Source of the DNA: a virus
Length of the DNA: 64,000 nucleotides
Virus record (IMG/VR): IMGVR_UViG_3300037852_000186
Coordinates: 35,975 to 99,974 of that record
Strand: one strand, 5' to 3'
Shown: positions 35,749 to 63,961 of the stretch, in pieces
How the letters are laid out: each line of letters opens with the position of its first letter
Position numbering within the stretch: the first letter of the stretch is position 1
The notes under the pieces: generated by a model
Database searches by the model: none
Told to the model about the DNA's origin: nothing
Seen by the model: only the letters and a program-made list of their open reading frames with translations
Position numbers and translations under genes: made by a program

Positions 35749-36372
35749 ATGCCAGAGACCAATAACGGCTACAATGCAGCTAACCAAACAAACAGGAAGT
35801 GGGTACCATTTGGCAATTTCGTCGTAAATGCTGGAACCTTGGTCGTATTGATAGGGACCTTGGGAACAATCATCTGGTATACGCCCGTCACCAGCCGGAT
35901 TCTTGATGCTGATACGCGACCCTATGTTGCCGTAACTGGCTCTGATTATATTACCTTCAAAGCCGGGGACCGTTTGGTCGAGCCCGTTAATCTCGCCAAT
36001 TCCGGTAAATTGCCCGCCGATGCCCTCATTCAGGGCGTTGTTACTTTTCAACCAAGTAAGCAGGCTGAGGCTGGTTCTTTTCCAGATGAAATGACGCATC
36101 TGTTCATTTGGCCCAGCCCTATTGAGAATCCATATATTACTGTCAAGAGTGTGAATGCGCTCAGCAATGAGAATTTTGAATTGCTGAAAAGCAGTGCGTT
36201 CTATGTATATATAGCGGTGCGTGTTCGATATGGCGGACATACTACGCGAATCTGTAAAGAGTACACTTTTGACATCAAATCGCGGACACCTGCCTGTTCG
36301 AGCGATAGTTGCAGCAGTCAGATGCCCGAACCAACATTGTGCAAGGATCCACATTCCAACTATGCCGATTAA
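35749..36372 (+). CDS. membrane-anchored hypothetical cargo protein
   Basis: N-terminal TM, RPYVAV...LANSGKLPA. Confidence 0.6.
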   Translation: MPETNNGYNAANQTNRKWVPFGNFVVNAGTLVVLIGTLGTIIWYTPVTSRILDADTRPYVAVTGSDYITFKAGDRLVEPVNLANSGKLPADALIQGVVTFQPSKQAEAGSFPDEMTHLFIWPSPIENPYITVKSVNALSNENFELLKSSAFYVYIAVRVRYGGHTTRICKEYTFDIKSRTPACSSDSCSSQMPEPTLCKDPHSNYAD

Positions 36373-59645: not shown

Positions 59646-60143
59646 GTGGCGCTAACTCATATCAGCGAATCGATATCGCGCGTGCTGCCCGTTCGCATTA
59701 TCGTGCTCGGCCTTCCGGTTCCTGCGGCTAGAGCTAGATTCGCTCGTGCGGGTGTATTCGTTCGGACGTATAACCCCGCCCACATGATGCAGTACCGGGA
59801 ACGGCTCCAAGCCGCAGCGCAAGAAGCGATGGTCGGTCGCGTCCCACTCGACGGTTCTCTATATATGAATGTGCTATGCGTGATGCCGATGCCCGAGTCT
59901 TTGTCGAAGCGTGACCGCAATGTCGCTATGCTCGGGATACTTGGACATACAAAAAAGCCCGACTGTTCCAACCTGCTCAAGAATTTTGAAGATGCTCTGA
60001 ATCGGATCGTTTATATAGATGACGCTCGGCTAAGCAAGGTGAGCGTTGTAAAAATCTATGGCGATAAGCCTCGATTAGAAATTGAAGTGGGGCCTTGGCT
60101 CCCGCCGCAATCCGCAACCCTGTTCGATGGAGAGAAACCGTGA
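59646..60143 (+). CDS. rusA: RusA family Holliday junction resolvase
   Basis: G-x-P...R-x-R...KKPDCSNLLKNFEDALN...YIDDARL...KIYG. Confidence 0.9.
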   Translation: MALTHISESISRVLPVRIIVLGLPVPAARARFARAGVFVRTYNPAHMMQYRERLQAAAQEAMVGRVPLDGSLYMNVLCVMPMPESLSKRDRNVAMLGILGHTKKPDCSNLLKNFEDALNRIVYIDDARLSKVSVVKIYGDKPRLEIEVGPWLPPQSATLFDGEKP

Positions 60144-60444
60144 CTATCAGCGACCTAGAACGCCATATAAACCTGCCCTCACATTTAGCCGAATACGATT
60201 GCGGCATCAATGAGGATATCCACGCCGTAATCGCCGGCTATCGAGCGATGCAGACGTTACTCCTGGACTTTTTGCTCGACCGCCCAGCCGGTGAGAGCGC
60301 TGGCATCTTTCGGCAGCGCGTAAAGGCGGCAGCCAAAGAAGTTCTCGACGAACTCAAGTGCAAGGAATAATTATCGCCGCACTTGCCAATCTGATATACA
60401 CGCGCTAACATTTTCGACAGTTTAGAGAAGAGGTTAAATTAGAA

Positions 60445-60927
60445 ATGTTTGATGAACACATTAAGGCGCACGACGACGCTATTCGCGCGGACGAACGAGC
60501 GAAATTTGTCCAGTTGATCAATTCAGCGGATAAGGCTGTGCATGACCTAAAGATGGCGGTGGGAGCACCGGAATATATGGACTCCCCTAGTACGCCCGCC
60601 GCAAAAGCTCCCAAACCGCGCACCGCCTCCAAGCGTAAGGTGCCGAGCGCTGCGGAGGTTCGCGCAGCCGCCCCGACCGTGCTGGCCGCGCTTGCTAAGC
60701 ACGACATGGTCAAACAGCCAGTGCTGGCGCATGAAACTGGTCTCGATTCTGAGCTAGTATCTTTTGCGCTTCGCCATCTCATTCATACCGGCGCAGTCGG
60801 TCGGTCCGGCAAGCACAAGGAAACCGCCTATTGTTTGATAGCGCAGTCTCCACAGCCAGCTTCCGAGCAGCAAGAGAATGGTGCGCTTGTAAGCGAAGAG
60901 TCCGAAAGTCCACAACAGGAGGGTTGA
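60445..60927 (+). CDS. hypothetical protein with C-terminal winged-helix-like region
   Basis: coiled coil, basic linker, then LAHETGL...ALRHLI-x-x-G-x-V-x-x-x-G. Confidence 0.5.
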   Translation: MFDEHIKAHDDAIRADERAKFVQLINSADKAVHDLKMAVGAPEYMDSPSTPAAKAPKPRTASKRKVPSAAEVRAAAPTVLAALAKHDMVKQPVLAHETGLDSELVSFALRHLIHTGAVGRSGKHKETAYCLIAQSPQPASEQQENGALVSEESESPQQEG

Positions 60928-61343
60928 AGTTAGACGAGAGGAGAAGTCTGAGTGGAATAACCGCAAGAAGCCCTGGCGTATGGTTCATGAACAGTCACAA
61001 AAACGCCGGGGCTTCACTTTAGGTGCAAGTATGTTTTTCTTAGCCTACAACATACGAACAGGTGAAGGGCGTGTATTCGGTTCGGCTCGCGATGCTCGCA
61101 GTTATGCACGGAGCTGGCGATGGAGCCGTGTCTGGGTCGGGATGATTGCGTGATGTCCGAGGCTGAGAATCTGCGCCTTTTGTTTTATGAGAGCGAGCAG
61201 GTCCGCAGAGCGCTCTGGGCGCAACTCGAACAGGAAAAGGTTTATCGCGCAAGCGCGAAGCTGACTATTGAGGCGGTGCTGAAGCGGGCGGAGAGAGCGG
61301 AGGCTGAGGTCGCGCGGTTGAAGTGGGTAATGGGATTGTTGGG

Positions 61344-62795
61344 CTAGGCCGACTCTTCCTGGTCGTCTTCGTCGGGTTCTCCTTCTGTCTCGTCGGCTGT
61401 GTCGGTAGCTTCTTCTGCGGCCTCATAGTCAATATCACAAACGCAGTTATGAACGACTAATCCTTGGGCCAAATACCAATGAGTATCGGTTTCTAAATCA
61501 TGGACGTACTCCGTTATCCCCGTGTGATTGTCGATGCCAATAAGCTTCGCGAGATGTATCTGGCTGGGAAAACTGAGAATCAGATCTCGAAAGAGTTGGG
61601 TATCGCCCGCGCTAGTGTCCGCAGTCGTTGCCTTAAATTGGGTCTCGTTCCTCGTACACTGTCCGAAGCTCAGCTTGTGCGGAATTCCCTTCGTACCCCA
61701 GAACAGCGCGCGGCTGGTGCGCGTGCTGCCCATGATGCAGCGCGCGGTAGAAAAGCCACATTCTTGGAGCTTTGTCAGCGGGCGATGACTATATCTACCA
61801 TGCCAAAGGCCCTGACAGCTATAGAGCGAATGCTCTACGAACCACTTCAATCTACGAATTTGACGATAGAACGTGAGCACGCTTGCGGCCCGTACAATAT
61901 CGACTTCGCTGTTGATGGTTCCGTCGCGGTTGAATGTTTTGGAGGAGGTTGGCACGCAACTGGACGAGCCGCCGCCCGCTTTCAAAAGCGCGTGCGGTAC
62001 TTGATCGATGCGGCTTGGCATGTTGTAGTCGTTTGGATTGACCGTCGCTACAACTCGGACCTGACGATCCGGGGGGCAATAGAGTATGCGGTCTCCTTGT
62101 CTCAAGAAACGCGCCTCCGACCAGCCATGCTGCGTCAGTATCGAATGATTTGGTGTTATGGTAAGAGAGTTGTTGTGACCGGCGATGCGAATAGTCAAGA
62201 GTTCCCCTTGATACCGTCTGCGCATATGAGCCGTTACGCCACTACCAGTGACAATACTATCTCCTACTAGACAATTCGGATGTGGCGAGTCTCCTTCGGG
62301 AAAATCTTCATCAATGCCAATCCATCCCGCCGCGATATTTTCTTGGCAAAGCTCACAAGCTGATTCGTCTCCGTTCCATCTTTTACGACCAGCGCCTGCT
62401 ACTTTTGCGGCTTCTAGACCGCCCGCTCGCAGGGCAACTTGCATCTCAGTACGAGCAATAGACAAGGCCCTGGTGGGGCTAAAAGCGTAAGCTTCTCGCA
62501 ATTCATCTCTGAGCCTGCCAGCCGACCAGCCTTCTTCCAGCGCCTGCACAACCGCCCCCCGCAGCATCTCGGGGGTGGTAGCCGCGAAGTCCTTAATCAG
62601 CTCCCCTGCGCGGCGCTCTGCGTAGGCAACCGCCCGATGATCAATGACATGCGCAACGTCCGCCTTGACGCGGAGCTGGCGTACCACGGTATGGCCGTTG
62701 CGGCGAAAGGCGCGGATGGTATGCGGCTTGATATCGTCGGCCAGGATGGCGAAGCCGTCGCTGAGGTCGATGTTGCAAATTTCGCGGGCGTTCAT
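61344..62795 (-). CDS. MuF/SPP1 gp7-like minor head protein, intein-containing
   Basis: RALSIARTE, KRW, CELC, HPN|intein|CVC restores the HPNC-x-C motif after splicing. Confidence 0.9.
   Translation of the reverse strand: MNAREICNIDLSDGFAILADDIKPHTIRAFRRNGHTVVRQLRVKADVAHVIDHRAVAYAERRAGELIKDFAATTPEMLRGAVVQALEEGWSAGRLRDELREAYAFSPTRALSIARTEMQVALRAGGLEAAKVAGAGRKRWNGDESACELCQENIAAGWIGIDEDFPEGDSPHPNCLVGDSIVTGSGVTAHMRRRYQGELLTIRIAGHNNSLTITPNHSILTQHGWSEARFLRQGDRILYCPPDRQVRVVATVNPNDYNMPSRIDQVPHALLKAGGGSSSCVPTSSKTFNRDGTINSEVDIVRAASVLTFYRQIRRLKWFVEHSLYSCQGLWHGRYSHRPLTKLQECGFSTARCIMGSTRTSRALFWGTKGIPHKLSFGQCTRNETQFKATTADTSAGDTQLFRDLILSFPSQIHLAKLIGIDNHTGITEYVHDLETDTHWYLAQGLVVHNCVCDIDYEAAEEATDTADETEGEPDEDDQEESA
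61446..62273 (-). mobile_element. intein (276 aa) in the MuF HPNC motif
   Basis: block A CLVGDSIV; block B TITPNHSILTQHGW...LRQGD; block F VHDLET...Y; block G VVHN followed by +1 Cys. Confidence 0.92.
61500..62270 (+). CDS. HTH + Vsr/DUF559-like endonuclease encoded antisense inside the intein
   Basis: LREMYLAGKTENQISKELGIARASVRSR (HTH); IERMLY...GPYNIDFAV...VAVECFGGGWH...YLIDAAWHVVVVW. Confidence 0.78.
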   Translation: MDVLRYPRVIVDANKLREMYLAGKTENQISKELGIARASVRSRCLKLGLVPRTLSEAQLVRNSLRTPEQRAAGARAAHDAARGRKATFLELCQRAMTISTMPKALTAIERMLYEPLQSTNLTIEREHACGPYNIDFAVDGSVAVECFGGGWHATGRAAARFQKRVRYLIDAAWHVVVVWIDRRYNSDLTIRGAIEYAVSLSQETRLRPAMLRQYRMIWCYGKRVVVTGDANSQEFPLIPSAHMSRYATTSDNTISY

Positions 62796-62841: not shown

Positions 62842-63273
62842 ATGGCTGGAAAGTTGTGTCGCAAGTGCTTAGTAGAAAAGCCATTAACTGAGTTTTATGA
62901 GCGTGAAGGGCGGCAAGGTACTCCACTGTATAGTTCTTGGTGTCGTCCGTGTACCCGCCGAACCGCGTTAGGCTGGCGTGCTCGTAATCTCGAAAAACGA
63001 TGGGCACATACACAGGTGGCCGCCGCGTTGAAATATGGACAGATAACACGTCCAGAGCGCTGCGAAGCTTGCCGTCGCGAGACAACTCCAATTGCGCATC
63101 ATCCGAATTACGAGCGTCCACTTGAAGTCATGTGGCTTTGTGATAGCTGCCACCATCTTCTCCATAAAGGACATCAAGAGATAGAAGCGCGGTGGCGAAA
63201 TAATAATCCCGCCGCCGCTATGGCTCTCGATAATGCCAAGAAAGATGCACAACCGAGAGGCGACAACATCTAA
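62842..63273 (+). CDS. HNH-like Zn protein
   Basis: CRKC...F...CRPC; CEAC...AHHPNY...VMWLCDSCH; own promoter TTGACA(62808)-17-TAACGT. Confidence 0.8.
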   Translation: MAGKLCRKCLVEKPLTEFYEREGRQGTPLYSSWCRPCTRRTALGWRARNLEKRWAHTQVAAALKYGQITRPERCEACRRETTPIAHHPNYERPLEVMWLCDSCHHLLHKGHQEIEARWRNNNPAAAMALDNAKKDAQPRGDNI

Positions 63274-63616: not shown

Positions 63617-63961
63617 TCAACGTGTGCTTTTCGCTGACTTGAAACTCAGATTGGGTTGCTTGAGACTTATTACTTTGGCCGGACGCTTAATGCCGATAGT
63701 TTCGGCCCGTTGTTGATAGACCCTTGCGGAATCCGCGACTTGAATTACGCTGATGCTTTTACCTATTGCTGTGTGGCAATCAGCGCACAAGGGGAAGAAA
63801 CTCCAAAAATCGTTATTGTGTCTACCGCTAAGATGGTCGAGGTTGCTAATAGGTTCCTCTTTATCGTTAAGAATCCACCGACCGCCATCATCGACAATTT
63901 TCTTCCGACCGCAATATGGACAAAATCCAGCATAGCATTGGTGTGTAACTAGACGGTGCAT
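63617..63961 (-). CDS. HNH-like protein (may extend beyond the window)
   Basis: CPYCG...LDH...N...PLCADCH. Confidence 0.6.
   Translation of the reverse strand: MHRLVTHQCYAGFCPYCGRKKIVDDGGRWILNDKEEPISNLDHLSGRHNNDFWSFFPLCADCHTAIGKSISVIQVADSARVYQQRAETIGIKRPAKVISLKQPNLSFKSAKSTR

Follow-up and report, generated by a model that had tools for sequence, protein, structure and literature searches.

Results

A mini-intein and a nested antisense gene at the MuF locus

The stretch of DNA analyzed here, hereafter the window, is the final 64 kb (positions 35,975 to 99,974) of the 99,974-bp IMG/VR virus record IMGVR_UViG_3300037852_000186, which is rated complete by CheckV. At 61344-62795 the minus strand of the window carries a gene for a 483-aa MuF-like (head morphogenesis/minor capsid) precursor protein. 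This gene is interrupted by a 276-aa intein (828 nt, minus strand, 61446-62273), and the intein in turn contains, on the plus strand, a complete 256-codon open reading frame (ORF) at 61500-62270. The MuF-like gene was identified from the ORF listing, Pfam, PHROG, and its intein-free homologues. The N-extein (174 aa, minus strand, 62274-62795) ends in ...FPEGDSPHPN and matches Phage_Mu_F in Pfam with an E-value of 9.5e-5, which is under the gathering score, as well as the PHROG families for head morphogenesis (E 3e-20) and portal-MuF (E 3e-17). The C-extein (33 aa plus stop, minus strand, 61344-61445) begins with CVCDIDYEAAEE and aligns with the C-termini of the intein-free homologues. Ten such homologues, which are 195-228 aa long and 49-67% identical to the window exteins, read straight across the insertion point as ...DPHPNC(T/S)C..., which fixes the intein boundaries and establishes that empty sites exist.

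The splice junctions can be read directly. The intein starts with Cys1 (TGT, 62271-62273) and ends with His-Asn (AAC, the complement of 61446-61448), which is followed by Cys+1. The junctions are thus ...SPHPN | CLVGDSIV ... GLVVHN | CVCDIDY..., an insertion at HPN|CxC. Where the window has SPHPN|intein|CVC, the homologues P0173, P0178, and P0180 have a contiguous ...DPHPNCTC... and P0182 has ...HPNCAC.... The splicing residues of the window intein are C1, T40-P-N-H43 (block B), the Asp of VHDLE (block F), H275-N276, and C+1. They include the four features of a class-1 intein (C1, T-x-x-H, His-Asn, and the +1 nucleophile), which are conserved across 49 aligned inteins. A previous reading of the window from its sequence alone had described an intein with intact splicing blocks at this position, and direct reading confirms it.

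The window intein has a Hint fold and consists of a Hint domain of ∼110 residues, made up of ∼70 N-terminal (∼1-70) and ∼36 C-terminal residues (240-276), and a passenger linker of ∼170 residues (∼70-240) that is the antisense reading of the plus-strand gene. We found no recognizable endonuclease in this linker by Pfam, structure prediction, or structural matching, as the sequence-only reading had claimed. On the minus frame, Pfam detects Intein_splicing alone. The structural matches of the sense-frame model are all Hint domains, with ∼106 residues aligned, and its pLDDT (predicted local distance difference test) score is ∼35-60 across intein residues 140-225. Residues 85-130, which lie opposite the most conserved core of the nuclease, are modeled at a pLDDT of ∼75-84. 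The conservation behind this segment is a shadow of the plus strand, because the strand-specific selection analysis described below favors the plus frame there.

The antisense ORF encodes a predicted helix-turn-helix/Vsr-fold nuclease

The nested gene (plus strand, 61500-62270) is codon-aligned with the minus frame, and its boundaries fall on intein codons. Intein codon 2 (CTA, Leu) supplies, as its complement, the TAG stop (62268-62270), which agrees with the description in the sequence-only reading, and a Leu codon in block F likewise reads on the plus strand as a TAA (61494-61496), two codons ahead of the ATG. The 256-aa product comprises a helix-turn-helix (HTH, ∼6-52), a helical linker, a Vsr-fold nuclease domain (∼103-229), and a disordered tail (∼235-256). 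An AlphaFold model built from a 113-sequence alignment (pLDDT 90.9, predicted template modeling score 0.78) contains the HTH, the helices, and an alpha/beta domain that extends to ∼residue 229 and is predicted to adopt the Vsr-type alpha/beta nuclease fold.

Sequence comparisons lead to the same superfamily. A word-indexed search with the 256-aa protein returned 28 homologues, the best of which had an E-value of 1e-53 and 44% identity, and an exhaustive search for the family recovered 1,598 clusters (at 50% identity) at E ≤ 1e-3 and 927 at E ≤ 1e-10. Pfam gave a sub-threshold match to REase_MTES_1575 (E 4e-7) and weak HTH matches. When the single sequence was compared with the PDB sequences using phmmer, only a weak match to a GcrA-like HTH was obtained; a profile search was needed to reach the nucleases. 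The family profile matched the DUF559-like structure 3hrl (E 4.9e-6), 3r3p (E 1.4e-3), and 1cw0 (E 9e-3). The model and the profile matches thus uphold the proposal that the antisense ORF encodes an HTH joined to a Vsr/DUF559-like nuclease.

Residues E109, D135, E145, H152, and R164 are invariant or nearly so in the family, and the window copy retains all of them. D135 and H152, invariant in 113 sequences, align to the metal-binding positions Asp51 and His69 of Vsr (residue roles of Vsr and I-Bth0305I were taken from PMC3239194). When the family profile is aligned to 1cw0, the position of Vsr Asp97 is taken by Arg164, a nearly invariant residue, such that the full EDxHD set is absent. The earlier assignment to the Vsr-like (EDxHD) class therefore holds for the fold and for D135/H152 and fails for the complete motif. 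That the Asp of E-x-D-G is replaced by Phe had also been pointed out as a reason for caution about activity. This Phe is present in the window copy (Phe147, aligned by profile with the DUF559 Asp and Vsr His64), and because it is found across the whole family it is a family trait and not a sign of decay of this copy. These alignments place the family on a separate branch of the Vsr/DUF559 superfamily that lacks the full EDxHD motif.

The nested arrangement is conserved across related loci

A pattern scan of IMG/VR identified 282 relatives, from which 80 loci were fetched; with 41 loci from bacterial and metagenome-assembled genomes, 121 related loci were available. In 79 of the 80 viral loci, the endonuclease match is spanned by a long ORF (268-1,443 aa) on the opposite strand, in the codon-aligned phase every time, and the endonuclease gene lies antisense inside a codon-aligned opposite-strand ORF in all 41 bacterial and metagenome-assembled loci. 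The nested antisense arrangement, in a single phase, is thus present in 120 of 121 loci. The bacterial and metagenome-assembled loci span at least 12 phyla, with taxa that include Bacteroidales, Acidobacteria, Firmicutes, Gemmatimonadota, Alpha- and Gammaproteobacteria, Actinobacteria, Chloroflexi, Cyanobacteria, Saccharibacteria, and Armatimonadota. Both intein boundaries could be located in 53 distinct loci. These contain an intein of 269-369 aa at one site, (P)H-P-(N)|C ... (S/H)-N|C-(R)-C, in MuF-like proteins, and the loci that failed the simple pattern search have flanks with MuF motifs such as ARTE, CxxC, and DDHPNGR|C.

Cultured phages carry the family as well. Eighty-seven GenBank phage records match, of which 62 come from Salmonella phages and 11 from Gordonia phages; the rest include phages of Vibrio and E. 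coli. The match in Salmonella phage vB_SenS_SE1 (Guernseyvirinae; L123, MK479295.1:34269-36128) lies inside and opposite to a coding sequence (CDS) annotated as "structural protein", and in Gordonia phage Fosterous (L124, MH976510.1, gene 12) it lies inside and opposite to a CDS annotated as "MuF-like minor capsid protein". Both CDSs adjoin the portal and terminase genes. The endonuclease gene is unannotated in these records, and PHROG has no family for it, which fits the proposal of the sequence-only reading that a dual-coding element of this kind would be mis-annotated. At the DNA level, a blastn search of GenBank phages with the window locus found no relative.

The one locus that departs from the nested arrangement (L053:2716-4195) contains the sole free-standing copy of the endonuclease gene among the 121. 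This gene converges on an intein-free MuF gene ending in ...HPNCRCCLTFKVD*, and the two overlap by 14 nt.

The two strands are under different selection along the intein

In the codon-aligned antisense phase, the endonuclease codons TTA, CTA, and TCA are the sole source of stops in the sense frame. Over the intein span of the 53 distinct loci, none of these codons occurs among 1,068 Leu and 924 Ser endonuclease codons. Based on the extein codon usage of the same genes, 297 would be expected, or ∼5.6 sense-frame stops per locus; for the window copy ∼4.5 are expected and none is seen, an arrangement beyond chance expectation. As a result of this avoidance, the sense frame stays open. The free-standing copy in L053 provides a natural control, since it contains 13 TTA/CTA/TCA codons and stops abound in its antisense frame. 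The complete lack of sense-frame stops in related loci suggests that the window intein is active in splicing.

To map selection along the element, codon-position entropy was computed over 62 loci. Across endonuclease residues ∼11-190 (61530-62069), variability peaks at the third codon position of the plus frame (first position of the minus frame), indicating selection on the plus (endonuclease) strand. Entropy, amino acid identity, and codon avoidance agree that the sense frame is merely kept stop-free in this segment, where mean pairwise amino acid identity is 0.42 for the plus frame and 0.25 for the minus frame. Toward both ends, over endonuclease residues ∼1-20 and ∼191-256, the most variable position is the first of the plus frame (the third of the minus frame), indicating selection on the minus (intein) strand; residues 211-230 gave a tie. 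Mean pairwise identity in the tail is 0.29 for plus and 0.39 for minus, and in the first ten endonuclease codons 0.32 and 0.47, respectively. The centre of the endonuclease is thus under purifying selection and the sense frame is open in 120 of 121 loci, which answers the check on homologues that the sequence-only reading had proposed. Its three grounds for rejection, namely no predicted nuclease fold, broken frames in most homologues, or an endonuclease in the sense frame, all failed to materialize.

The endonuclease gene shares codons with the splicing blocks at both of its ends. At the 5' end, over a region used on both strands (61446-61529), its start overlaps blocks F and G of the intein; the His codon of VHDLE is complementary to the ATG at 61500, and minus-strand selection acts on endonuclease residues 1-10. 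At the 3' end (62070-62270, both strands), endonuclease residues ∼191-256 lie opposite intein residues 3-68, which include blocks A and B, and minus-strand selection dominates. Here endonuclease R215-M-I-W218 is paired with intein T40-P-N-H43 on the opposite strand. In the modeled Vsr fold, a helix (187-206) and two strands (213-219 and 224-229) are encoded opposite intein residues 30-72, including block B, and both strands are modeled with confidence and fall within the Vsr-aligned range.

Stops in the endonuclease frame, which arise from TTA/CTA/TCA codons in the intein frame, are confined in the 53 loci to the complement of intein residues 1-25 or ≥258. None occurs opposite residues 26-257, where ∼0.9 per locus would be expected in 26-66 alone. 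The sequence-only reading's view that both strands are constrained over block B is therefore borne out, with the minus strand dominant and the plus frame uninterrupted. We also considered that the conserved tail motif of the endonuclease might be a mere shadow of block B. This was ruled out by the L053 copy, which retains the motif as REYKVIWGAG with no intein opposite, and the motif therefore belongs to the nuclease. Taken together, block B is a site of true double coding.

Expression signals of the nested gene

At many loci (e.g., L014, L047, L065, L069, and L074), the endonuclease start is preceded by CTGGAGGTCATA, which is the reverse complement of the block F Y-D-L-Q codons and supplies a GGAGG ribosome-binding site. 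A conserved splicing motif is thus read on both strands. A crude Shine-Dalgarno survey of the window ORFs was too noisy to gauge the reliance of the host on such sites.

A run of plus-strand genes, co-oriented with the nested gene, extends from 59646 to 61347. It begins with RusA (59646-60143, Pfam E 2e-28) and continues with further ORFs, the last of which overlaps the MuF stop codon at 61344-61347; the run ends 150 nt upstream of the endonuclease ATG. A terminator scan found no convincing terminator between the RusA run and this ATG. Read-through transcription, and with it expression, of the endonuclease gene is therefore possible.

Mobility and decay

The ten closest extein relatives of the window lack the intein, with HPNC(T/S)C contiguous, and the long, intein-bearing extein relatives that were found are at most 45% identical to the window exteins. 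This sporadic presence of the intein among MuF alleles fits invasion, on a thin sampling of alleles. Decay of the endonuclease can be seen at one related locus (L006:2851-3750), where a single in-frame stop falls in the HTH and the opposite MuF-intein frame (513 aa) is open. This looks like either a recently inactivated copy or a sequencing error.

Genome setting

The 207-aa spliced product would be a short MuF-like protein, and its gene stands alone on the minus strand, surrounded by plus-strand genes, close to where the linear record ends. No ORF was identified as a portal or terminase in the 22 kb of the window upstream of the MuF-like gene. From this setting, the gene may be either the head-morphogenesis MuF of the phage or a separate MuF-domain protein. 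Immediately upstream and divergently transcribed is a Cys-rich 143-aa ORF (plus strand, 62842-63273) that matches PHROG families of endonuclease/endonuclease VII/HNH proteins (phrog_2340, E 1.5e-26). By homology, this ORF may encode another homing endonuclease at the MuF locus, a free-standing one. Further along, a 114-aa ORF (minus strand, 63617-63961) contains CPYC...CADCH Cys/His pairs that resemble a zinc-finger or HNH motif, and it has no Pfam or PHROG family match.

Discussion

A probable mobile intein built from two opposite-strand genes

Our findings are very probably explained by a mobile intein that consists of two genes on opposite strands, a cis-splicing mini-intein in MuF and an antisense homing endonuclease with an HTH and a Vsr fold. 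The anatomy of the locus, the two folds, the conservation of the arrangement, the selection on each strand, and the sporadic presence of the intein among MuF alleles are shown by the data. In the proposed mechanism, the mini-intein would be translated from the minus strand within MuF, at the Asn/Cys of HPN|C(R)C, and its self-excision would restore HPNCVC. The linker of ∼170 residues would have no function and would be constrained solely to stay free of stops, being the antisense reading of a separately translated endonuclease gene. During co-infection, the endonuclease would cut intein-free MuF alleles at or near the site coding for HPNCxC (junction ...CCACATCCGAAT|TGCGTTTGTGAT...), and repair of the cut allele would copy in the entire element. 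The last beta-strands of the endonuclease share codons with blocks A and B, and its start with block F. We assign a homing role to the enzyme because the intein occupies one insertion site wherever it could be located, and such target-site fidelity is the signature of a homing enzyme.

Several points weigh against this explanation. Splicing, antisense transcription and translation, and cleavage specificity are, for the window copy as for all other members, what we infer from sequence. The window copy has no Shine-Dalgarno sequence before ATG 61500, block F there being VHDLET, and no promoter-like site was found upstream of this ATG on the plus strand, in a promoter and terminator scan that never rose above shuffled background. 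Two acidic residues of the related enzymes are replaced (Phe147 and Arg164), which may mean that the chemistry differs or that the enzyme only nicks. Conservation imposed from the intein strand may have raised AlphaFold2 confidence artificially in the overlap zone. The nearest endonuclease homologue, at 44% identity, appears too distant to demonstrate recent mobility of the window copy. Finally, some copies in cultured phages have lost invariant residues: SE1 has Ala at His152 (GGGWACS) and Fosterous is without GGxWH, which suggests that these two endonucleases may be inactive.

Some of these points would be accommodated by the rival that survives best, in which the window copy is a relic. Its intein would splice, as MuF needs it to, with the antisense endonuclease unexpressed or inactive and the element inherited only vertically. 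The missing Shine-Dalgarno and promoter-like sites, the 44% identity of the closest endonuclease relative, and the decayed copies elsewhere (the in-frame stop in L006 and the lost His motif in SE1 and Fosterous) are all in line with a relic. However, the 256-codon frame is intact and keeps all invariant and near-invariant catalytic residues, and an unselected antisense frame would soon gain stops. In addition, the closest MuF relatives are intein-free, which points to acquisition and not to ancient vertical descent, and the co-oriented upstream gene run could provide transcription. We therefore consider a relic unlikely.

The antisense protein might alternatively be a domesticated regulator or a defense/counter-defense nuclease whose position in an intein is incidental, since its HTH resembles those of transcription regulators and its active-site motif deviates from EDxHD. 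We regard this as highly improbable, given that 120 of 121 loci are nested, that the 53 located sites and the MuF motifs point to one intein site in one host gene family across at least 12 phyla, and that even the sole free-standing copy abuts the same MuF motif. The least credible rival is that the plus ORF is itself a shadow, a wrong-strand artifact of gene callers cast by an unrecognized in-frame intein domain; the moderately confident modeling of sense residues 85-130 and the conserved sense motifs there, such as EDFHGDG and VDIV, could be cited for it, but it is contradicted by the plus-frame third-position variability and higher plus-frame identity in the centre, by a plus-strand protein that folds confidently and matches known nucleases by profile and structure, by the Hint-only structural matches of the sense model, and by a free-standing copy whose antisense frame is closed by 13 stop-generating codons.

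Within the two-gene explanation, the intein and the antisense endonuclease may form one ancient, co-adapted pair of overlapping genes, as opposed to a case of casual nesting. We put this forward tentatively, judging its chances to be a little short of even. The idea is based on the R-Q-Y-R-V-I-W-G strand motif and the block B motif T-P-N-H-x-I/L-L being complementary readings of the same codons, on the endonuclease ribosome-binding site and start being built from block F codons, and on a single lineage in a fixed phase at one MuF site in phages of at least 12 bacterial phyla. If it is true, antisense placement would let the nuclease follow its own schedule, uncoupled from the late head gene; it could, for instance, be made together with early or recombination genes, of which the co-oriented RusA run is an example here. 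These elements of the idea do not appear in the 2025 preprint discussed below.

Significance

A large endonuclease family (∼1,600 clusters, 282 IMG/VR loci, and 87 GenBank phage records) is invisible to annotation. The genes go unannotated in the GenBank records inspected because gene callers omit ORFs that are nested antisense in longer ones, and inteins of this type are consequently misread as degenerate or mini-inteins. The element is a clean natural case of an antisense frame being held open purely via synonymous codon choice, with the free-standing copy as a built-in control, and it supports the view that inteins gain endonucleases through invasion by free-standing endonuclease genes. Relatives occur in Salmonella and Gordonia phages that can be cultivated, which puts splicing, expression of the antisense gene, and homing within reach of bench tests. 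A Hint domain of ∼110 residues that tolerates a linker of ∼170 residues is also of possible interest to protein engineers.

Comparison with known systems

The closest known system is described in a 2025 preprint by Gosselin, Arsenault and Gogarten (bioRxiv 10.1101/2025.01.02.630785), who reported full inteins, in the minor-capsid (MuF) genes of actinophages, that carry VSR-like endonucleases in antisense, with the secondary ORFs typically outside the splicing domain. The high novelty implied by the sequence-only reading does not stand up to this report, and the novelty of the architecture is modest. As in their inteins, the window has a contiguous intein ORF, a Vsr-like ORF within it on the opposite strand, and an unfolded sense middle. 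The window copy differs in that it resides in an uncultivated 100-kb phage that is not an actinophage and that both ends of its secondary ORF run into splicing blocks. Beyond the preprint, our analysis adds a spread far beyond actinophages, to Salmonella Jersey-like phages and prophages of at least 12 phyla; one insertion site wherever located and one phase in all 120 nested loci; a quantified stop avoidance with a natural control and a strand-by-strand map of selection; and nuclease coding that extends over splicing blocks B and F.

Fractured genes offer a second comparison. In these, Vsr-like endonuclease genes lie between the halves of split inteins, and such enzymes were stated at the time not to be known in inteins (Dassa et al. 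2009, PMC2677866). Both systems combine a mini-intein in a phage gene with an endonuclease of the Vsr superfamily that has its own ORF within the intein region. The fractured host gene, however, is two ORFs joined by trans-splicing, whereas the sense frame of the window is continuous, and the window intein would thus splice in cis. A split intein or fractured gene was ruled out for the window, where the ORF listing gives a host frame unbroken through 483 codons, and likewise for 120 of 121 related loci.

Among characterized homing enzymes, I-Bth0305I (EDxHD; Taylor et al. 2011, PMC3239194; PDB 3r3p) has its gene in a group I intron and uses NUMOD repeats to bind DNA. The window family has an HTH instead of NUMOD repeats and an Arg at the last Asp of EDxHD (I-Bth0305I Asp222/Vsr Asp97), and by sequence it is nearer to DUF559/MTES_1575 (3hrl, Pfam PF18741) than to I-Bth0305I. 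Antisense LAGLIDADG ORFs in inteins have been on record since 1998, with the Ssp DnaX intein (Gorbalenya 1998, as cited in bioRxiv 10.1101/2025.01.02.630785). As far as that citation describes them, those inteins share with the window element a homing endonuclease ORF opposite a contiguous intein, and they differ from it in nuclease superfamily, host genes, and organisms.

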